From positions 703,507 to 767,506 of the forward strand of contig CP166960.1 in assembly GCA_041447175.1 (NCBI GenBank): a stretch of DNA of 64,000 nucleotides. Direction: 5' to 3'. Origin of the DNA: Candidatus Bathyarchaeia archaeon. Lineage in GTDB: Archaea > Thermoproteota > Bathyarchaeia > Bathyarchaeales > Bathycorpusculaceae. Shown piece by piece: positions 28,959 to 54,398 of the stretch. Below the pieces are notes generated by a model. The model did no database searches. It was not told the origin of the DNA and was given only the letters and a program-made list of their open reading frames with translations. How positions within the stretch are numbered: the stretch's first letter is position 1; the number at the start of each line of letters is the position of its first letter. The translations under genes and the position numbers were made by a program.

Positions 28959-29036
28959 TGGTGGGGCTGGGGAGATTTGAACTCCCGTCACGAACGCCCG
29001 AGGCTCATAGCCTGGACCATGCTAGCCGACAGCCCC
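28959..29036 (-). tRNA. tRNA-Pro (anticodon CGG) with encoded CCA
   Basis: Hand-folded cloverleaf. Acceptor GGGGCTG/CAGCCCC; D-arm GGCT/GGCT with G-U pairs; anticodon stem TGAGC/GTTCG; loop CT-CGG-GC (U33, G37); T-arm GGGAG-TTCAAAT-CTCCC; discriminator A followed by CCA. Confidence 0.8.
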
Positions 29037-40728: not shown

Positions 40729-41475
40729 TCACGAGGTTGTGCTTGTCATTTCTTTTTCGGCATCATCTTGGCGGCTGGGTTTTTTGGTTACTTGTAGCTT
40801 TCTAAGCATTTCCCGGGCGTTTTCCAGCATCGCAGTGTCATTGTTAAAGAAAACATATGCCCCTGTCGGGTTTGCCTTAGCGATTTTAGCTGCGACCTCT
40901 TTGAGCTCTTTGTCCGTGTAGCGGTGAATATACCATGCGGTTCGACCATGCATCCGCAGATAAACCCTGCCTTCAAGGTTAACGACTTCCCTAGGCAAGT
41001 CGGGCGCATCCACACTCACCCAAACAACCCCCACATCCCTTGCCCAGCTGGTCCACTCGGGCGTGAACCACTGCTGGTTTCTCGCCTCAAGCGCAATTTT
41101 CCCCTCAATGCCTGTTTTTTGAATAAACCTTTCAATGATTGACGCGGAATGCGGTGTGGTTTTGGGTGGAAGCTGAAACAAGAAAAAATCCGTCACAGAC
41201 TCAAGGGGGGCAAAGAGTTGTTGGAAGTTTTGCCATCGGCTTATGGCTGCCTCGTTGAACTTGTAGGTGTGGGTGAAGAGGCGGTTGACTTTAATTGACC
41301 ACCGCAGGTTTTTGCCTTTGGTTGCCCATTTCTCAACGGTTTTTGCGGGTGGGTACCTGTAGAAGCTTGCGTTTAATTCTACGGCGTTTAATCCTGATTT
41401 GGCAGCGTACCAGTCTAGCCTACGCGTCTGGTTCCATTTGTAGTACCAGCCAGAAGTGCCTACAAAAGCATCCAT
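40729..41475 (-). CDS. DUF72 family protein
   Basis: N-terminal VGTSGWYYKWN, with FYRYPP and FFLFQLPP motifs characteristic of DUF72. Confidence 0.8.
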   Translation of the reverse strand: MDAFVGTSGWYYKWNQTRRLDWYAAKSGLNAVELNASFYRYPPAKTVEKWATKGKNLRWSIKVNRLFTHTYKFNEAAISRWQNFQQLFAPLESVTDFFLFQLPPKTTPHSASIIERFIQKTGIEGKIALEARNQQWFTPEWTSWARDVGVVWVSVDAPDLPREVVNLEGRVYLRMHGRTAWYIHRYTDKELKEVAAKIAKANPTGAYVFFNNDTAMLENAREMLRKLQVTKKPSRQDDAEKEMTSTTS

Positions 41476-41666: not shown

Positions 41667-42401
41667 ATGACGGACGGCAAAGGAAAATTTGAACAAGACC
41701 TCAACGTGCTTGTCGCTAAACTTTCAGCAGACATGACAGAGGATCACAAGCACAAACTGGAAAAACTAAAACTTGACCTTATCAATCTCCAAAAACGCAA
41801 CATAGTCAAAATTAACCATTCTGTCATGGAGTTAGTCTGCGCCAAATACCTCATCCTTAAAGATTATGATGTTGAAATTGAGTACCCTCTTGACCCCATT
41901 TTAACCTGTGATTTGTTTTCCGCAAAAGGCTACGGAGACCTCATCGTGGAAATCGAAACCGGCTACATACCGCCCGAACACGCTATGGCTCCCCTAACGT
42001 ACACTTATGCGCGTTTGGCAAGCAAAATCGTCCGTTACAGTTGTTTTGCAGGAAAATTCGCCATTGGAGTTCCGCCTCACTATGTTTTGCCGCTACCGAC
42101 GGCTCTAACGTTGCCGCCTCGCCGAAGAAACCCCAACGACATTGAATACATCAAAAACCTCTGCGACCGCTTCTACCAAAACCCTCCCGTCACCTACGAT
42201 GGCATCCGAAATGCACGCATACACGAAATCTACCTAATCGACGTAGACCGGCTAAGAGTTCAAGAGATGGACCCCGAAACATACATGAAACGCGCTCTAA
42301 ACAAAGGAGTTGTCTTCACACCCTACGACGAAGCAATTGTTGAAAATGGCATAGGCACTCAGGGGCGTCAAGAAGAAAGAATTGACTACTACACCAAATA
42401 A
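41667..42401 (+). CDS. Hypothetical protein (possible PD-(D/E)xK-like core)
   Basis: CDLFSAKGYGDLIVEIETGY resembles a D...ExK-type nuclease core but lacks the Lys. Weak support. Confidence 0.3.
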   Translation: MTDGKGKFEQDLNVLVAKLSADMTEDHKHKLEKLKLDLINLQKRNIVKINHSVMELVCAKYLILKDYDVEIEYPLDPILTCDLFSAKGYGDLIVEIETGYIPPEHAMAPLTYTYARLASKIVRYSCFAGKFAIGVPPHYVLPLPTALTLPPRRRNPNDIEYIKNLCDRFYQNPPVTYDGIRNARIHEIYLIDVDRLRVQEMDPETYMKRALNKGVVFTPYDEAIVENGIGTQGRQEERIDYYTK

Positions 42402-42417
42402 CTCTGATGATACCTCG

Positions 42418-42684
42418 ATGCCCTACTTCGTTTACATACTTCTTTGTCAAGACGGAACCTTCTACACTGGCTATACCAAAAACGTGCAGGAACGCGCCAA
42501 CCTGCATGCAAACGGACGCGGCGCCAAATACACCAAATCACATCCGCCAAAGCAGGTTTCCTATGTGGAAACGTTTTCTTCCCGTTCAGAAGCTATGCGC
42601 CGCGAGAAGGCAATTAAGAAGCTAAACCACCAACAAAAACAAGCCCTCATTGACTCACAAAGCAACCCAAAAAACTCTCCCTAA
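42418..42684 (+). CDS. GIY-YIG nuclease superfamily protein (UPF0213-like)
   Basis: YFVYILLCQDGTFYTGYTKNVQERANLHANGRGAKYT...SEAMRREKAIKK carries the GIY-YIG motifs. Confidence 0.8.
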   Translation: MPYFVYILLCQDGTFYTGYTKNVQERANLHANGRGAKYTKSHPPKQVSYVETFSSRSEAMRREKAIKKLNHQQKQALIDSQSNPKNSP

Positions 42685-43217: not shown

Positions 43218-44501
43218 TTAAATGATGAACATTAACGCTAATGCGGTGCAGATTGGGATAAGTAAATTGTCATTTATGGGCAGTGGCAAAAACTCAATAG
43301 TCATCCCTATCGCGGCGCCAACTAAGGCAATCCAAGGCGAAACAAACATTAAAGCCCCCAAAAACGCGAAGAAGAACCCGCCTAAGGAGCCTTCCAGCGT
43401 TTTTGACCGGTTAAACGGCATCGGCTTTTTGGACAGTGTGCCTCCGATGAGGGATGCGGTGCTGTCACCAAAGGTGAAGATGGCAATGGCGGCATAGCTT
43501 GCTGGAGCTGGGAAAAGTAAGAGCGTGAGCAGAATTCCAAACGCAAAGTACAACGGGGCTGTCGTAAATTCGCAGAGTTCTGATTGGGACGCCGCATGCC
43601 GGGTTACTGTTGAGAAGAAAGGCACGTTCATTCCTTTCACCCTTGATAACTCAGAAACCGTGTAAAAAACAATCACCAAACTTATGAAAAGCGCTACAAG
43701 CGGTACACCTAAGTAAATTGCAAAAATGGGCATGAAGATGCCTGAGGCGTGAATGGATTCGCGGAGTAGGTCTTTGGATGAGGGAAAACTTTTGGTTTTT
43801 TGGACGCCGTGAATGATGGGTAAAATTTTGGAAAGCCTGCCGGTTACAATGGCGTCTGCTTTTGTTTTTATGATAAAGTCGGAGTTGTAGCCGATTTTTA
43901 AAGCGTCTTTGAGAAAGATACTAGAGTTGTTGCGGTCATCAGCCACTACAACACAATCGCTGGGAGTCAGGTTTCCTTCTTCTAAAAGTTCCTTTAGAAC
44001 CAAAAATTTGCCGTTTGATTCAGTTACGTCGCCCCAAACCTCCCCCGTGAAGAAATCGCCTTCAATGCTAACCTCCACGCCTATCGCGTAGTCGGCACCA
44101 ACTTGTTTTGCTAATCGATCAACCAGAAACGTCGGAATGCCCGAACTGATCAGCGCTGTTTTACAGCCTTCAGCCCTTAAGGTGTCAAAGACTTCTTTGC
44201 TGTTGGGCATAAGCGGCAGATTATCAATGGTTTGATAAAACACTTCAAGTTTAGTGCCTCGTATAGTCCAAAAAATCCGCGTCAACGCCTGCTTAAGAGG
44301 CAAAGCTCCGATTTCGTACAAGAAACCCATGAGCAGCACCCGAAACAAATGTGCAAAACCTAAACTTCGTGCTACGTCAAAGAACAACCGGTTTCTAGGT
44401 ATCAGGACGCCTTCCACGTCAAAAACAGCAAGCTTTGGTTCCCTCCCCTCGGTAATCGTCAATGTTTTCACTTTTAACCCGTATTCTGGACTAACCCTCA
44501 A
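43218..44501 (-). CDS. Fusion of a HAD-IB (phosphoserine phosphatase-like) hydrolase domain and a polyprenol/dolichol kinase-like CTP-transferase membrane domain
   Basis: N-terminal KLAVFDVEGVLIP (DxDx motif variant), ALISSGIP and VVADDRNN. The C-terminal multi-TM region has FGDSTASLIGG, typical of the DolK/CdsA family. Confidence 0.6.
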   Translation of the reverse strand: MRVSPEYGLKVKTLTITEGREPKLAVFDVEGVLIPRNRLFFDVARSLGFAHLFRVLLMGFLYEIGALPLKQALTRIFWTIRGTKLEVFYQTIDNLPLMPNSKEVFDTLRAEGCKTALISSGIPTFLVDRLAKQVGADYAIGVEVSIEGDFFTGEVWGDVTESNGKFLVLKELLEEGNLTPSDCVVVADDRNNSSIFLKDALKIGYNSDFIIKTKADAIVTGRLSKILPIIHGVQKTKSFPSSKDLLRESIHASGIFMPIFAIYLGVPLVALFISLVIVFYTVSELSRVKGMNVPFFSTVTRHAASQSELCEFTTAPLYFAFGILLTLLLFPAPASYAAIAIFTFGDSTASLIGGTLSKKPMPFNRSKTLEGSLGGFFFAFLGALMFVSPWIALVGAAIGMTIEFLPLPINDNLLIPICTALALMFII

Positions 44502-44548: not shown

Positions 44549-45895
44549 TTAAGCAGATTTGCCGTTGAGCGCCTTTTCGTTCTGTAACTCCAATGGGCAA
44601 CCTCCACCGCAAACCTGCAGTTGAGGGCACCCCTCACATTTTTCTGGAGCGTAGGCTCGACTGCGGATTGCTTGGGCGGTGGGGTGGTTCCAGATTTTGC
44701 TCCAGCTGGCGGTGAGGATGTTTCCGAGGCTTTCAAAGTAGCTTTGACAGGGGTACACTTCGCCGTTGGGTGCCACGCACATATTAATGAGAGCGGCACT
44801 GCAGGACTTTACGCCTAACCCATACTGCACGGGGTCAAACTGGCAGTACTGCGTGGGTGTGTACCACAAAAACTTAAGCCCCAACTCCTGCGCTTTGTCC
44901 CTAACCTGCGGCAACAACACATGCAAGTCGTCAATGGTCAGGGCAAACTGCTGGCTTACCTCGTTGGCTTTGCCTGAGTAGATGAGGCTGTTGCAGCCAA
45001 ACGCATCCACACCCAAACCCTTAATGAAGTCTACTGTGTCCAAGAAGCTCTTCGCGTTATGTTTGCTAAGCGTGGTGTTAGTGGTGACGTAAATTTGCGA
45101 GTTTACGACGTTTCGGATGCCCGCTACGGTTTCCTTCCAGCTGCCCGCGGAGGCAGTCATGGCATCGTGCACTTCCGGTTTATGCGACTCCAACGTAACC
45201 TGCACAAAATCCAGCCCCGCCTTCTCCAACGCGTCCACGTAGGCTTTGTCTTGGAGGTTTCTACCGTTGGTTATTAGCCCCGTGACCATGCCTTTGTTTT
45301 GGGCATAAAGCAGCAACTCCGGCAGGTCCTCGCGTAGGGTGGGTTCGCCGCCCGTGAAAGTCAAAATGAACACGCCGATACTGCTTAGGTGGTCTATTGC
45401 TTGTTTCCACTGTGCCGTGGTCATTTCAGCGGTTTCGTGGGGTCCGCCTGCGTAGCAGTGAATGCAGTTGTTTTGGCAGCGGAAAGTCAACGCCATATCC
45501 ATACGCAACGGCGCTGTGTACGCGTAGCTGAACGGCTCCTCCTTTTCCACATCCAAAAAGGTCACAGGGCAAATTTTCTCCGTTTCAGCCAGTGTGCTGA
45601 TTGTGTAGATAAGCCGCTCGTAGTCCGCTTTGGCTTGGTTTTCGTCAACGCGAAATGTGCCGCGGATTTTTTTGATAACCTCCGCTTCGGGCATGCCCTG
45701 CATGAAGAAATATGCGTAAGCTGAGGCGGTTGGGTTAAGGTGCAGCACAGTGTTTGCGTTAATCACCATGACGCCGCGTTCATCCGATTCAACACGTAGT
45801 TGCAGCGCCATACCCGTGAATTCGCCTGTTCCACGGTAAGTGTACCGCCCAGCAGGCACCACGCTTTTTCTAAGTAACTTGTTTTTCCAACTCAT
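44549..45895 (-). CDS. Radical SAM/SPASM-domain enzyme with N-terminal PqqD-like (RRE) domain
   Basis: CQNNCIHC (CX3CX2C). SPASM Cys cluster (CSAALINMCVAPNGEVYPCQ...CEGCPQLQVCGGGCP). The N-terminal VMVINANTVLHLNPTASAYAYFFMQGMPEAEVIKKIRGTFRVDENQAKADYERLIYTISTL resembles PqqD/RRE. The ATG at 45895 lies 1 nt after the upstream stop. Confidence 0.8.
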   Translation of the reverse strand: MSWKNKLLRKSVVPAGRYTYRGTGEFTGMALQLRVESDERGVMVINANTVLHLNPTASAYAYFFMQGMPEAEVIKKIRGTFRVDENQAKADYERLIYTISTLAETEKICPVTFLDVEKEEPFSYAYTAPLRMDMALTFRCQNNCIHCYAGGPHETAEMTTAQWKQAIDHLSSIGVFILTFTGGEPTLREDLPELLLYAQNKGMVTGLITNGRNLQDKAYVDALEKAGLDFVQVTLESHKPEVHDAMTASAGSWKETVAGIRNVVNSQIYVTTNTTLSKHNAKSFLDTVDFIKGLGVDAFGCNSLIYSGKANEVSQQFALTIDDLHVLLPQVRDKAQELGLKFLWYTPTQYCQFDPVQYGLGVKSCSAALINMCVAPNGEVYPCQSYFESLGNILTASWSKIWNHPTAQAIRSRAYAPEKCEGCPQLQVCGGGCPLELQNEKALNGKSA

Positions 45896-45896
45896 C

Positions 45897-47525
45897 TTAT
45901 CCAACTCCTCCACCGGCACATGCACACGCACAAGAAACACACGCGCAGGCACACGCGCACGCCGCACAGGCGCAGACGCATCCCGCTTTTTTGTTGGCGG
46001 GTTGATGAGAAGCGGGGGGTTTGGCGGGGATGATGGCGTTGGCGAATTTTTCGATGTTGGTTACGATGTTGCTTGAGGTTTTCTCCAGCGAGGTGGCGAT
46101 GTTGTTGGCGAATTCGGCGCCGGGAATCGTGGGGGGTTTGCCTGACTGCGAGGGGGCATTGATGTTTGGCGTGTAGTTTGGGTCGGCTCTGTAGTGGGTG
46201 TAGCCGTACCAGTACCACAGCCAGTACGGACTGGGCTCAAATGGCCGCGTGGTGAAGGTGGTTTTTGTGCGTCCCTGATAGTCTGGGTCTAAGAGTAGCC
46301 ACAGAAGCTGCTGGTCATATGCTTTTGATGCAAGCTCACCTGTGCCTGCCTGCTCCACCTGCAGCCATGCTTTGTCCACAATTTTGCGGTAATACTCCTC
46401 CGTGTCCTTGCGGCTGTATCCCCGCAGTTTCTGCTCCAAGGTGTCTCGCAGATACATAACGGTCTTTGCCAGTGCCTCTTCGTCAAGGGTTCCGTCCGCT
46501 TTGACTGCGTCGAGAAAGTCTATTTCGTAGTACCGCAGCAGGTTGTCCTCGGGTCCCTTCTTGTTTTGGTATTCGGGCATAACCCGCAGCTTAAGCGATG
46601 GATTGGTGGATTCCACCCAGACCGCGCGTTTCTGCAGCAGGCTGTAGAGGATTTCGGTAACGATTTGGGTGGGCTTAAGGTCCAGCAGATAAGAGGCTTC
46701 GACAGCGGTTAAGCCGCGTTTTATGCCCAGAGTTTCCATGCTGACCTTGGGTGAAGTGTAAGGGCGTTTCCGCGCGGCGTAGAAAACTATGCCTAAGGCA
46801 AGCAGAACAAACGCCACTGCCGCCGCAATGAACGCTATGCTGGTTCCTGATAAGCCGCCTTGGGCTGGAGGCTCAAAATCTGGAAGGGCTTCTGCTGGAA
46901 ACGACACCCCAACAATGTACTGCTCCTCGGCTTGCAGAACAGGAATTTCCCAGTAAACCGCGAGTCTGCCGTCGGGTTCAGTAGAGGTGCTGTTCCAAAA
47001 GGCGTCTGCAGTGGTTTTCACATCGTTTACGGTGACGTTTGGGGGCATAACAATTTGGATGCGGGCATCATTGATGGGAACCGACATCCACTGTGGGGCA
47101 AACTGCATCCCAAAGTTCCCCTCGTTCATGGAGTCAGGGCTAATCATGTCCGCCACGTTGGTGGTTAAGGTGAACCAAATGGTGTTGCCTGCGGTCAGCG
47201 GCGAATCCAAAGTTACCTTCACGCCTGTGCCATCCGAAGAACGGTCAGCCTGCAAGAAATGCCCATACTGGTCCGTGACTTCGCCAATCATGAAGTCCTT
47301 GGTGGGCTGCCCCAACGTAACGTAGCTGATTTGCTGCCCCGACTCCAACGTTAAACTCACGTTATAAAACAGGTCAACTGTGCCGTCGTGGTTTATCCAA
47401 AGCTTTGCCCATTCCTGATTGAAGCGGTAGCTTCGGGTCTGCGCGTCAGAAACCGCGACGGAGGCGGCTACGCAAAGAAGCAGAACCGCTACGAAAAATG
47501 TAAAGAAGACCCGTTTTTTCACCAT
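45897..47525 (-). CDS. DUF2207-like membrane protein ending in an alternating Cys-Ala tail
   Basis: Signal/anchor helix, then an extracytoplasmic domain (SYRFNQEWAKLWINHDGTVDLFYNVSLTLESG), then a TM followed by ARKR. A large cytoplasmic region follows (GLTAVEASYLLDLKPTQIVTEILYSLLQKRAVWVE). C-terminus: CVCACAACACACACVSCACACAGGGVG. Confidence 0.6.
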   Translation of the reverse strand: MVKKRVFFTFFVAVLLLCVAASVAVSDAQTRSYRFNQEWAKLWINHDGTVDLFYNVSLTLESGQQISYVTLGQPTKDFMIGEVTDQYGHFLQADRSSDGTGVKVTLDSPLTAGNTIWFTLTTNVADMISPDSMNEGNFGMQFAPQWMSVPINDARIQIVMPPNVTVNDVKTTADAFWNSTSTEPDGRLAVYWEIPVLQAEEQYIVGVSFPAEALPDFEPPAQGGLSGTSIAFIAAAVAFVLLALGIVFYAARKRPYTSPKVSMETLGIKRGLTAVEASYLLDLKPTQIVTEILYSLLQKRAVWVESTNPSLKLRVMPEYQNKKGPEDNLLRYYEIDFLDAVKADGTLDEEALAKTVMYLRDTLEQKLRGYSRKDTEEYYRKIVDKAWLQVEQAGTGELASKAYDQQLLWLLLDPDYQGRTKTTFTTRPFEPSPYWLWYWYGYTHYRADPNYTPNINAPSQSGKPPTIPGAEFANNIATSLEKTSSNIVTNIEKFANAIIPAKPPASHQPANKKAGCVCACAACACACACVSCACACAGGGVG

Positions 47526-47872
47526 TTCGGCTCCTCCGCAACCTCGAACGTGGTTCCACAATAAGGGCACTTCGCGTAGGGTACGCCTTTTTCAATGTGG
47601 ATTTGGCGTGCATCCACCGAGGCAGAGCAGTGAGGGCACTTGATTGTGGCGGCCTTCATTTTTCCCGAAAGCTCCAGTTGCTGGATGATTTTGGTGGGTT
47701 TACGAGACGAAACGTAAGTGACGTATGAGACAGCAAAACCTAAGGCAAAGAGGGCAAGGGCGACGGCTAGGCGCGTGGTGGCTTCTTGGACGGAGGCGGC
47801 GATGGCAAAGATTAAGCCAAAGAAGAACAGAACAGCCGCAGCGAGCGCGCCTAATACGGTTGTTACTTTCAT
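47519..47872 (-). CDS. Two-TM membrane protein with C-terminal zinc ribbon
   Basis: Two hydrophobic helices, then CPHCS...CPYCG. Its stop overlaps the start of the downstream gene (ATGGTGA). Confidence 0.5.
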   Translation of the reverse strand: MKVTTVLGALAAAVLFFFGLIFAIAASVQEATTRLAVALALFALGFAVSYVTYVSSRKPTKIIQQLELSGKMKAATIKCPHCSASVDARQIHIEKGVPYAKCPYCGTTFEVAEEPKW

Positions 47873-47981: not shown

Positions 47982-50489
47982 ATGTTTCCCACTGGGGCAA
48001 AGGGCAAAAAGTTATCTGCATTACTTTTGGTAGGGCTATTTTTTGCAGCGGGCGCGTTTTCAGTTATCGCTGGTGAGGGGTTTGTTTCAGCTCAACCTTT
48101 AGTGCCCCCTGTTTTGGCATGGCAACAGACCCTGCCTGAGGAGTCGGGAGTTTCTGCGAATCAGATTATACAAACCAGTGACGGCGGATATGCAGTGGTT
48201 TGTGAGGGGAACTACAAGAATTTTTCTCCGGGGGCACTTGTCAAACTGGACGCTGCGGGTCAGGTTCAGTGGAGTAAAACTTATGGTGTGGTTAATTTGT
48301 TGACTTTAATGCAGACCACAGATGACGGCTTTGCTCTGGTTGGCTACGAGTTTAGGGGCACTTCCCGCCCTGTTCTTCTTAGAACTGATTCAAACGGCAA
48401 TGAACTATGGAACCAAAGCTACACCGAGTTAACCGTCAACTCGATGCTGCCCGCACCAGACGGAGGCTTCATATTTGCGGGGTCTGCTTCAACCACCCAC
48501 GACGCCGCGTTGTCTGATTCTGACTTTGCCTTGGCAAAGGTGACTTCTTCAGGGACTCTTCAATGGAACAAAACATACGGCGACGCAGGCGACGATTATG
48601 CCGTTTCGGTTGTGCAAACCCTTGATGGCGGTTATGCTTTGGCTGGAACAACAACGTCGTTTGACCCTGAAGGAGAATCCAATATGTGGCTCGTAAAAAC
48701 GGATTCAGAAGGCAACATGCAGTGGGACAAAGCCTTTGGAGGGTTAGGCGACAGCGCGGCTTACTCGGTTATTCAAACCAATGATGGAGGCTACGTTTTA
48801 GCGGGCGACACTAACGCTTTCGGGTTAGGCCGCTATGACGCGTGGCTAATAAAAACCGATACCACGGGCAATCTTTTATGGACCCAAACCTACGGCGGAA
48901 CAGGCGAACTACCCAGCATAGGCGATTTGCCGACAAATTTTGTTGCAGGCTCAAACGGCGAGGCAGAAGACCACGCGTATTGCGTAATACAGACCCGTGA
49001 TGGAGGCTTGGCCTTTGTTGGAGCTTCCTCCTACATGCCATCAGGGTCGGCAACTACCCTTGTTTGGCTAGTCAAAACCGATTCTGCTGGAAACCCCCAA
49101 TGGAACCAAACCTTCGGCGCACCATTCAAGACTTGGGCAGGAAACGCCCTCATCGAAACATGCAACGGCGCTTTTGCCATTGCAGGTTTCAGGCAGGAAC
49201 CTGGGTTTCCGTGGATAGGCAACGGCTATGTAGTTGAAACTGAACCCTCTTCACCTTTACCGAGCTTAACTCCAACAGTCTCCGTTTCGCCAAGCTCGCC
49301 TCCTCCCACCTTGTCTTTTCCCTCAACCATCATACTTGCCGACGGAAACATTGACCCCTCAACGTCGCCTATTCAACGCATCGGCAACCTCTACACGTTA
49401 ACGGACAACTTGAATGGAGAACTCGTCCTCAATAAAGACAACGTGATTCTTGATGGCGCTGGCTATATGCTTCAGGGAAACGGCACCTTAGGCGGGCTTA
49501 TAATTCGAAAGAGTCAAACTGGCGTGAACCTAACAGACCAAACCAACATCACGGTCAGGAATCTGCAGATAACTGGCTACAACTACGGCATCTACCTCCA
49601 AAACTCCACCAACATCACCCTCACCGAAAACAGAATTTCACAAAACAGCAACGGCATTTTTGAGAAAAACTCAACCTTCACCACAATTTCAAAGAGCAAC
49701 CTGACACAAAACGACTACGGCGTTTTCATAACCCAATCCTTTAACAACAACTTAAGCCGCAACAACATCGATGATAGCCTCTCCTTTGGCATCACCTTAA
49801 ACCAATCGGTGGGTAACGTTCTTTTCGGAAACAACCTAACCACCTCAAGCGTTGACTTTGAATCGGGCTCAAACAACCTCGTCGCGGGGAACCTCTTCTA
49901 CAGCAGCTACTTTGGCATCTACCTGAACGGCGAAACCAACTCTACGGTTGTAGCAAACAATTTCACGGCCTGCAGTTTTGCCATAGATTCCCCAAGTGGC
50001 GCCTTTGGCAACTTGTTCTACCTGAACAGCTTCAACAATACGCACATTAACGAGTTTTCTGGGAAAGAGCATAATTTTTGGGACAACGGCACAGTTGGAA
50101 ACTTCTGGAGTGACTACTTCACAAGGTACCCAAACGCCACTGAAGCTGACAACTCTGGGGTCGGAGACATTCCTTACGCCATGGTCTACGGCTTAACCGA
50201 TGAGTACCCATATGATGGGGATGTTCCAAACCCCAACAATGTGGACCGCTATCCCCTGTTGACGCCAGTTTCAAGCACCACCGCCATGACCTTAGCGGAA
50301 GAGTTAGTTTTGGCGCATACGTGGTCGTCAACTCCGACTCTGCCCCCATACGCCACGCCTTCACCATCAACCTCCCCGCAACCCGATTCCGTATCGGCTG
50401 ATTTGTGGCTGGTGCTTGCTTTTTTGGGTCTAATTGGGGTCGTTGCGGTTGCTGCGTTGGCTTTCAAATTGAGAAAGAAGCATACCTGA
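47982..50489 (+). CDS. Large surface protein: DGGY-motif repeats + right-handed parallel beta-helix (NosD/pectate-lyase-like) + PT linker + C-terminal TM anchor
   Basis: Signal peptide. ~7 diverged repeats (W.KTYGG...IQT.DGGY.LAG...D.WL.KTD..GN..W). Beta-helix repeats (NITVRNLQITGYNYGIYLQNSTNITLTENRISQNSNGIF). C-terminal helix plus KLRKKHT. Confidence 0.65.
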   Translation: MFPTGAKGKKLSALLLVGLFFAAGAFSVIAGEGFVSAQPLVPPVLAWQQTLPEESGVSANQIIQTSDGGYAVVCEGNYKNFSPGALVKLDAAGQVQWSKTYGVVNLLTLMQTTDDGFALVGYEFRGTSRPVLLRTDSNGNELWNQSYTELTVNSMLPAPDGGFIFAGSASTTHDAALSDSDFALAKVTSSGTLQWNKTYGDAGDDYAVSVVQTLDGGYALAGTTTSFDPEGESNMWLVKTDSEGNMQWDKAFGGLGDSAAYSVIQTNDGGYVLAGDTNAFGLGRYDAWLIKTDTTGNLLWTQTYGGTGELPSIGDLPTNFVAGSNGEAEDHAYCVIQTRDGGLAFVGASSYMPSGSATTLVWLVKTDSAGNPQWNQTFGAPFKTWAGNALIETCNGAFAIAGFRQEPGFPWIGNGYVVETEPSSPLPSLTPTVSVSPSSPPPTLSFPSTIILADGNIDPSTSPIQRIGNLYTLTDNLNGELVLNKDNVILDGAGYMLQGNGTLGGLIIRKSQTGVNLTDQTNITVRNLQITGYNYGIYLQNSTNITLTENRISQNSNGIFEKNSTFTTISKSNLTQNDYGVFITQSFNNNLSRNNIDDSLSFGITLNQSVGNVLFGNNLTTSSVDFESGSNNLVAGNLFYSSYFGIYLNGETNSTVVANNFTACSFAIDSPSGAFGNLFYLNSFNNTHINEFSGKEHNFWDNGTVGNFWSDYFTRYPNATEADNSGVGDIPYAMVYGLTDEYPYDGDVPNPNNVDRYPLLTPVSSTTAMTLAEELVLAHTWSSTPTLPPYATPSPSTSPQPDSVSADLWLVLAFLGLIGVVAVAALAFKLRKKHT

Positions 50490-54084: not shown

Positions 54085-54398
54085 GGGCTGGCGAGTTGGT
54101 GTGTGGCTGTCGTTCCCTTCGGGGAATGAGGAAACTCCGCTCACGTGTAGAATTGCACCCCGACGGGGAAGCCGAGAGGCTTGGCAACAGAGCAGAAACG
54201 AAACGTCCCCCCAGACTTGGCGATGAAGCGTTAGGGACGCGGAGTGTGCTGGGTGCGGCGCGGTGAAACGGCTGTCCTGCAAGTGGAAAGGGCAAACAGG
54301 CGCCGATGAAGCATCTACCGGAAGGCGCGGGTAGCCCGATTAGCCGAATGCCACAACAAGAACAAAAAGCGGGTTACAACCAACACACCACGCCCACC
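54085..54398 (+). ncRNA. rnpB: RNase P RNA (archaeal type-A-like)
   Basis: CR-I-like GAGGAAACTCCGC, GGTGAAACGGC, and a CR-V-like ACAAGAACAAAAAGCGGGTTAC whose GCGGG can pair with CTCCGC (P4). The 5' GGCGAGTTGGTGTGTGG and 3' CCAACACACCACGCC ends are complementary (P1). ~310 nt in a gene-free gap. Exact ends are approximate. Confidence 0.7.

Follow-up and report, generated by a model that had tools for sequence, protein, structure and literature searches.

A radical SAM/SPASM enzyme and the Cys-Ala tail of its neighbouring membrane protein: a candidate protein-maturation module shared by Archaea and Bacteria

Radical S-adenosylmethionine (SAM)/SPASM enzymes that depend on a recognition element (RRE) for peptides made by the ribosome and modified after translation (RiPPs) have been mined almost exclusively beside short precursor peptides. 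What, then, does such an enzyme act on when the gene next to it encodes a large membrane protein ending in alternating cysteine and alanine residues? This question is raised by a three-gene cassette in a 64,000-nucleotide stretch of a Candidatus Bathyarchaeia archaeon genome (contig CP166960.1; hereafter the window), in which the genes for a small zinc-ribbon membrane protein (A), for the Cys-Ala-tailed membrane protein (B) and for the enzyme (C) follow one another. Since the partner of C is a 540-residue membrane protein, the pair is invisible to pipelines that search for short precursors. The answer that we favor, as a probable one, is that the pair B-C is the heart of a conserved module for protein maturation, in which C would modify the tail of B, as predicted from genes, alignments and models. 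That B and C are functionally coupled is a claim we hold with greater confidence.

The genomic linkage of the two genes was followed in both directions. In a scan seeded with B (80 loci, one genome per GTDB species, searched by tblastn with the window proteins), an orthologue of C adjoins B in 74 of the 80 loci, with 37-74% identity over residues ~10-440 and 270-720 bits. For five high-GC loci (L036, L059, L066, L077 and L081) the open reading frame (ORF) calls were unreliable and tblastn was used instead; of the six loci outside the 74, L057 and L082 are cut by contig ends, L036 is ambiguous, and three without C within 7 kb are weighed further below. The hosts comprise Bathyarchaeia, other Thermoproteota, Heimdall/Hodarchaeota, Methanomassiliicoccales and Thermoplasmatota, together with Anaerolineae/Chloroflexota (including the cultured Ornatilinea apprima P3M-1), Planctomycetota, Aminicenantes, Hydrogenedentes, Polyangiaceae and others. 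The reverse scan, seeded with C in metagenomes (80 loci, 44-75% identity to C), found B or its tail beside C in 72 contigs; in another seven, C lies at the contig edge without a usable flank, and in one (L151) C and a methyltransferase gene sit near the contig end, with no B upstream and ~750 nucleotides available downstream of C. One distant representative of B lies on a 1.9-kb contig without neighboring genes. The genes that flank the module differ from lineage to lineage. The linkage between B and C is thus near-obligate, two-way and spread across Archaea and Bacteria, and the recurrence of both tail and linkage in two domains of life is more than chance. An original prediction, made from the letters of this stretch, had named the linkage of C to Cys-tailed proteins as a test of the idea that the tail is its substrate, and both scans bear it out.

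The second line of evidence comes from the tail itself. Homologues of B number 1623 at 90% clustering, and an exhaustive search of representatives yields a family of 580 clusters at 50% identity, of which 160 reach E<=1e-30. The best 120 homologues, from Bathyarchaeia, are all ~540 residues long (64-100% identity) and have an essentially unchanged tail. Further out, full-length representatives with as little as 27% identity still nearly all end in a Cys-Ala tail, and the core CACACAGGG is kept where the bodies have diverged to 25-30% identity. Three types of tail can be distinguished: an archaeal one, C[V/A]CAC[A/V]xCACACAC[V/A]SCACACA[G/S]GG[VG/AG/AR]; a very uniform bacterial one, ...GGGG-CACACACAGCACACAGGGR; and a third, CACACACVSCACACACAGGGGCT. 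All have at least two (Cys-Ala)3-4 blocks, divided by C-[A/V]-[G/S]-C and closed by Gly-Gly-Gly, with 7-11 cysteines at i, i+2 spacing, a pattern that could fold into a hairpin that has Cys on one face and Ala on the other. Expressed as the mean frequency of the top residue in 90 representatives of B, conservation is 0.40 in the ectodomain, 0.43 in the cytoplasmic domain, 0.72 in the whole tail and 0.99 in its last nine residues (CACACAGGG). The tail, which the original prediction could examine in one copy only and expected to be conserved in homologues, is therefore the most conserved part of the protein. Conservation of a DNA-level repeat can be ruled out as the cause, given that the codons are saturated at their third positions: across 73 genome loci, the tail cysteines are encoded by TGC and TGT at ~50:50, and all four GCN and all four GGN codons occur at every position. 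Because these positions vary freely, selection must act on the peptide, alanines and glycines included.

In the window, the cassette is encoded entirely on the minus strand and comprises the following features:

47519..47872, minus strand: gene A, a 117-residue membrane protein with two transmembrane (TM) helices and a cytoplasmic CxxC...CxxC zinc ribbon
47522..47536, minus strand: C-terminal motif E-E-P-K-W of A, a near-identical end in archaeal and bacterial orthologues
45897..47525, minus strand: gene B, a 542-residue type-I membrane protein
46860..47438, minus strand: predicted extracytoplasmic beta-sandwich domain of B (residues 30-222)
46770..46844, minus strand: predicted single TM helix of B (residues 228-252), followed by ARKR
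46206..46706, minus strand: predicted folded cytoplasmic domain of B (residues 274-440), a strand-helix N-terminal part and a helical bundle
46026..46130, minus strand: conserved pre-tail helical segment of B (residues 466-500)
45900..45980, minus strand: (Cys-Ala)n tail of B, CVCACAACACACACVSCACACAGGGVG (residues 516-542)
44549..45895, minus strand: gene C, a 448-residue enzyme with RRE, radical SAM and SPASM domains
45581..45853, minus strand: N-terminal PqqD-type RRE of C (residues ~15-105), assigned at the family level
45455..45478, minus strand: CX3CX2C radical SAM cluster motif of C (C140, C144, C147)
44597..44845, minus strand: SPASM domain of C, with seven invariant cysteines (C351, C365, C383, C420, C423, C429, C433)

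The three genes are packed start to stop, as had been noticed at the outset, and the ORF coordinates and junction sequences agree with that description in each particular. The terminal codons of A (E-P-K-W-TGA) overlap the start of B, whose ATG lies inside ATGGTGA (47525-47519); B ends in GGGVG-TAA (45899-45897) and is followed by a single base and by the ATG of C at 45895. A, B and C are translationally coupled. B matches, at 100% identity, a protein annotated as hypothetical in a Candidatus Bathyarchaeia MAG (locus tag ACBZ72_03940). For C there are alternative upstream starts, such as the GTG at 45967, and the NCBI model has 467 residues. Read in another frame, the Cys-Ala codons form an Arg/Leu/Cys-rich ORF (...RLRLCGVRVCLRVC...; 45892-46218 and 45896-45967, both on the minus strand), and upstream extensions of the radical SAM gene beginning 'MCLRLRR...' have been called in many loci. 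Given that the orthologues of C are 447-448 residues long and that their alignment favors it, we take the ATG at 45895 as the start; the upstream extension looks like an annotation artefact and not a real overlap of genes.

The predicted architecture of B would place the tail on the side of C. The AlphaFold2 model of B, built from a 32-sequence alignment (mean predicted local distance difference test score, pLDDT, 81.6), has an N-terminal signal/anchor helix (residues 2-27), a beta-sandwich (32-210, pLDDT 93-97), one TM helix (228-252) with ARKR right after it, a confidently modelled cytoplasmic domain (274-440, pLDDT mostly >90), two pre-tail helices (469-487 and 491-498, segment 469-498, pLDDT ~82-85) and a disordered tail (502-542) ending in CVCACAACACACACVSCACACAGGGVG. 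This agrees with the order originally proposed (anchor helix, outside domain, one TM helix with ARKR, cytoplasmic tail), the predicted topology being tail-in, so that the tail and enzyme C are predicted to share the cytoplasm. The cytoplasmic domain carries the conserved motifs RGLTAxEAA and KGFSRxET...YY (alignment A1). The pre-tail segment (466-500), with the family consensus PGxxFAxxxxxxxExxSxxxVxNxxxF...P, is a candidate leader-like recognition region.

Foldseek with the whole model of B was informative for the ectodomain alone, which resembles ribophorin I/OST1 and the M1 aminopeptidase N-domain (E 3e-10 to 1e-8). Pfam and NCBIfam gave nothing usable for B (sub-threshold DUF6232 and LAVTG noise), and a hidden Markov model (HMM) profile of B had no match among PDB sequences. 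The label 'DUF2207-like', attached to B at first, survives as a statement of distant kinship and fails as one of membership: the window copy has no Pfam match to DUF2207 (PF09972 and PF20990) at E<0.1, while among 32 family members PF09972 matches two (best 5.5e-5) and PF20990 matches three (best 1.2e-4), and UniProt labels the Ornatilinea orthologue 'DUF2207 domain-containing'. These sequence matches suggest a distant relationship only. DUF2207 proteins share with B an anchor/signal helix, an extracytoplasmic beta-sandwich, a TM region, a cytoplasmic region and a low-complexity, Gly-rich C-terminus; the branch of B differs in its single TM helix behind the ectodomain, in its distinct cytoplasmic domain and in carrying the Cys-Ala tail. 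The sole functional study of a DUF2207 protein in the literature searched concerns a stress/biofilm phenotype in S. mutans.

The identity of C as a radical SAM/SPASM enzyme is clear. It belongs to the radical SAM superfamily (PF04055, E 1e-24, 88 bits, cut-off 29.5) and to the SPASM subfamily (PF13186, E 2.1e-11, 44.4 bits, cut-off 21.5), and both the CX3CX2C motif (C140/C144/C147) and the seven SPASM cysteines are invariant in the alignment of 32 orthologues (alignment A2); the motif and a SPASM Cys cluster had been recognized from the single sequence. The PqqD-type RRE that had been proposed for the N-terminus holds at the level of the family, the window copy itself being sub-threshold: Pfam PqqD (PF05402) matches 22 of the 32 orthologues at E<=0.01 (best 4.4e-9), and a profile of the N-domain finds, in the PDB, the lasso-peptide RREs TfuB1 (1.5e-7) and TbiB1 (0.03) as well as PqqD (0.14). 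In the AlphaFold2 model of C (shallow alignment, mean pLDDT 64.8, trustworthy in the N-domain and barrel alone), the N-domain has strands 16-21, 30-35, 41-45 and 49-53 and helices 55-65, 70-81 and 85-105 (pLDDT 80-91), which is the beta-beta-beta-alpha-alpha-alpha fold expected of a PqqD-type RRE. By these profile matches and the modelled fold, the N-domain is, as a family, a PqqD-type RRE.

None of the curated families listed accommodates C. Foldseek with the whole model retrieves SkfB (2.5e-13), SuiB, CteB, PqqE and anSME, the SuiB and CteB alignments spanning all three domains. Compared as whole-protein scores with curated NCBIfam cut-offs, among the best 25 matches listed, C scores 139 on NirJ2 (cut-off 500), 125 on PqqE (381), 125 on AhbD (500), 114 on MftC (265), 90 on SkfB (300), 81 on StsB (625), 79 on AlbA (850) and 74 on the ACGX system (400). 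It reaches none of the cut-offs in that set, and neither does the Ornatilinea orthologue, which RefSeq names 'radical SAM protein'. Assignment as an AhbD/NirJ heme enzyme or as anSME, which had been named as a possible refutation, is ruled out by these scores and by the presence of the RRE. With the PADLOC anti-phage defence models, C has generic similarity to the viperin core alone, and A and B have no match.

Protein A begins with two hydrophobic helices and has, in its C-terminal part, a CxxC...CxxC zinc ribbon matched by TIGR02098 (23.6 bits, cut-off 20.9) and by PF13248. Upstream of B, 64-65 of the 80 genome loci have an orthologue of A, and its C-terminus is near-invariant (...CPxCxxx[FY][EQ]xxEEPKW-stop) from Bathyarchaeia to Anaerolineae and Planctomycetota. 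The EEPKW end, which the original prediction overlooked, is a possible substrate or docking motif, and its invariance makes A a rival or second substrate candidate. A was not found in at least seven loci with full 7-kb flanks (L017, L022 and L024 from Thermoproteota; L074, L076, L078 and L083 from Heimdallarchaeota), and these Heimdallarchaeota and non-Bathyarchaeia Thermoproteota loci retain the B-C pair. Because the pair persists where A is missing, we regard B-C as the core and A as a frequent membrane accessory partner.

Other lineages add components of their own. Anaerolineae loci carry a paralogue of C that has a PqqD-like N-domain and lacks both the CX3CX2C motif and the SPASM cysteines, which we read from its sequence as a putative catalytically dead scaffold; they also carry a class-I SAM methyltransferase. 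In Ornatilinea apprima the paralogue is WP_075064615.1, the methyltransferase WP_075064614.1 and the orthologue of B WP_075064617.1. The Methanomassiliicoccales and Asgard loci have the arrangement B-C-methyltransferase, and Planctomycetota and some others the order A-C-(Met_synt_B12-like)-dead paralogue-B, with a second B gene in some cases. In L028 (10135-12052) and L058 (4708-6965 and 8800-10728) we observed the CX3CX2C-less paralogue and the class-I methyltransferase (best match, sub-threshold, to the DVU_1556 family); L058 also has a Met_synt_B12-like protein and two tandem B genes, each ending in a Cys-Ala tail. Some Anaerolineae (L019, L023, L038, L039, L041, L055, L075 and L084) have, between C and the dead paralogue, a 113-residue PAS-like protein and a ~335-residue protein with a hydrophobic segment at its C-terminus. 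A dual-specificity-phosphatase-like gene (HCxxGxxRT) is recurrent near the Anaerolineae cassettes.

How could the pair work? In the mechanism that we propose, B would be inserted N-out and C-in, leaving in the cytoplasm a part of ~290 residues that ends in the flexible Cys-Ala tail. C, a putative cytoplasmic enzyme of three domains (PqqD-type RRE, radical SAM barrel and SPASM with two auxiliary clusters), would dock through its RRE on the segment of B upstream of the tail and modify the tail covalently by 5'-deoxyadenosyl radical chemistry. The product may consist of thioether cross-links (of the sactionine/ranthionine type) from the sulfur atoms of tail cysteines to carbons of Ala or Gly, which would lock the tail into a rigid hairpin still attached to the membrane protein. 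We consider thioethers the most likely chemistry because of the StsA/StsB/StsC precedent and because QhpD and anSME mature proteins; the tail is the presumed substrate, and a thioether-linked hairpin the predicted product. In its most specific form, the proposal is of a protein-embedded RiPP, in which the RRE-guided C installs multiple cross-links in the (Cys-Ala)n-Gly3 sequence of a full-length membrane protein and so creates a new cytoplasmic structural or metal-binding element; here we consider the case for and against to be evenly balanced.

Several observations weigh against modification of the tail by C, or against particular forms of it. No C lies within 7 kb of B in L050, L052 and L063. 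The RRE assignment is less direct in the window than in the family, with C scoring 17.2 bits on PqqD (PF05402), under the cut-off of 23.4. Two members of the B family (P0268 and P0295) carry a further homologous domain of ~90 residues after the Cys-Ala block (that of P0268 has no match in Pfam), and a free C-terminus is therefore not obligatory. C is not measurably nearer to enzymes that form thioethers than it is to C-C cross-linkers or to heme/pyrroloquinoline quinone (PQQ) enzymes, and epimerisation, C-C cross-linking or Cys oxidation may take the place of thioether formation. Finally, CxC-rich sequences can bind metals unmodified, and A has an invariant C-terminus of its own that could be the substrate or a second one.

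The last two points correspond to rival explanations in their own right. The tail could be a metal or Fe-S module, a metallothionein-like CxC ladder with its thiols on one face of a hairpin, with no cross-linking by C, which would instead load, sense or use the bound cluster, or act elsewhere while anchored to B. This resembles the alternative already given in the original prediction, and the 7-11 cysteines at i, i+2, in at least two blocks around a conserved two-residue turn, are what such a module might look like; the host lineages named for the B family are known anaerobes. Simple ligation, however, does not need alanines and glycines as invariant as the cysteines in the face of saturated synonymous change, an invariance that fits acceptor or steric roles better. 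The conserved gene set includes no metallochaperone or Fe-S assembly gene, and what almost always adjoins B is an RRE-bearing radical SAM/SPASM enzyme, of an architecture whose known members modify peptides covalently (PMC10114670). We therefore judge the metal module unlikely, although it is the rival we take most seriously. Further down the scale of probability, and in our opinion quite doubtful, stands the possibility that C acts on A, cross-linking or trimming the invariant EEPKW end, with the B tail serving some other role. C might then form a Lys-Trp C-C cross-link, as StrB/SuiB do, or carry out MftC-like C-terminal chemistry, and SuiB, which cross-links Lys to Trp and has its RRE at the N-terminus, is indeed among the nearest folds to C; A is also translationally coupled to B, and its EEPKW-stop hardly varies between Bathyarchaeia, Anaerolineae and Planctomycetota. 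Yet A is missing from the full-flank loci, at least seven, that keep B-C, the motif comes directly after a folded zinc ribbon that leaves little room for a leader, and its Lys and Trp are adjacent, unlike those in the known motifs KxxxW or WxK.

The adjacency of B might also be mere operon organisation, C acting on an unannotated small precursor peptide or on a small molecule. Most characterised RRE radical SAM enzymes do act on short peptides (PMC10288494), and the bacterial loci have additional genes, for the dead paralogue, the methyltransferase and the 113-residue PAS-like protein. Nevertheless, in the window, as in other Bathyarchaeia loci, the three genes either overlap or directly adjoin one another, with no space for a further ORF, no further gene is common to all lineages, and the adjacency of B and C outlasts unrelated flanks across phyla and domains, all of which makes this explanation highly improbable. 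Modification of the B tail by C thus remains the reading that we prefer, and none of the refuting outcomes named in the original prediction that computation can address came true.

The surroundings of the cassette in the window were also inspected. Downstream of C by 47 nucleotides (43218-44501, minus strand) lies a gene for a 427-residue fusion of an N-terminal HAD hydrolase domain and a multi-pass membrane domain; it is syntenic with the cassette in Bathyarchaeia loci alone, and because its co-occurrence is restricted in this way it was rejected as a component and is probably outside the system. Divergent from A (47982-50489, plus strand) is the gene for an 835-residue NosD/right-handed beta-helix surface protein, anchored to the membrane at its C-terminus, which is not kept beside the cassette in other genomes. 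Also downstream of the cassette are a DUF72 protein (40729-41475, minus strand) and a small GIY-YIG nuclease-domain protein (42382-42684, plus strand), the latter recurring near the cassette in related Bathyarchaeia contigs. The window additionally contains the archaeal RNase P RNA (54091-54388, plus strand, 180 bits) and one tRNA gene (28962-29036, minus strand), both of which fit an archaeal chromosome.

If the proposal is true, it would represent the first RiPP-type, leader-guided maturation of a membrane protein. A modified tail would extend RiPP logic to membrane proteins, define a new post-translational structure made from a Cys-Ala repeat, and offer a functional entry to DUF2207-like proteins, for which a cultured host is at hand (Ornatilinea apprima P3M-1, WP_075064614-618). 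If the tail binds metal, it would form a new metal or cluster site in the cytoplasm, coupled to a domain on the extracytoplasmic side. With its 580 clusters, the family occurs in Archaea and Bacteria alike and is abundant in Bathyarchaeia, which are a major lineage of sediments.

It remains to compare the module with known systems. We found it described in no curated family listed, source annotation or paper in the literature searched, in accordance with the early remark that no described system of this architecture was known. The definition of sactipeptides and ranthipeptides calls for a short precursor with a leader and a Cys-containing core, encoded beside the maturase; here nothing Cys-rich adjoins C but the end of the 542-residue B. 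In overall build, the nearest enzymes are the SCIFF maturase CteB and SuiB, which, like C, combine an N-terminal RRE, a radical SAM barrel and a SPASM domain (Foldseek to C, 5e-11 to 1e-10), and the SCIFF peptides are Cys-rich as well; unlike B, however, the substrates of these enzymes are peptides of ~45 residues, and their sequence likeness to C does not go beyond the domains in common, with 16-18% identity in the structural alignments. Action on a lasting functional protein, from which no natural product is released, is known from QhpD, which makes Cys thioethers that cross-link a protein subunit (PMC10114670), and from anSME, which modifies whole proteins (PMC10114670). In contrast to B, QhpC is a small soluble subunit (the gamma subunit of quinohemoprotein amine dehydrogenase) cross-linked to Asp/Glu, anSME has no RRE and oxidises a single Cys or Ser to formylglycine, and neither QhpC nor sulfatase is a membrane protein or has a Cys-Ala repeat.

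The closest precedent, by analogy, is the StsA/StsB pair of Streptomyces sparsogenes (CxCxC...GxGxG). In this system StsB, with the RRE protein StsC, introduces into a CxCxCx4GxGxG core three sactionines, each from Cys to Gly, in a hairpin arrangement (PMC10288494), and the processing of StsA is efficient only when StsC is present (PMC10288494). The likeness to B-C lies in the guidance of a radical SAM/SPASM enzyme by an RRE of the PqqD type, and in a core with cysteines at i, i+2 and i+4 followed by a Gly-rich stretch, which in StsA becomes a hairpin held by three S-C-alpha bonds from Cys to Gly. The differences are that the RRE is fused to the enzyme in C and a separate protein in StsC, that the Cys-Ala blocks of B are longer (7-11 Cys) and its three glycines contiguous, that C scores 81 bits on the StsB model against a cut-off of 625, and that the presumed substrate is the end of a 540-residue membrane protein and not a short leader-core peptide. 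The B-C module therefore resembles RRE-dependent radical SAM/SPASM maturation while being a member of no named system, and it is its presumed substrate that makes it unusual.

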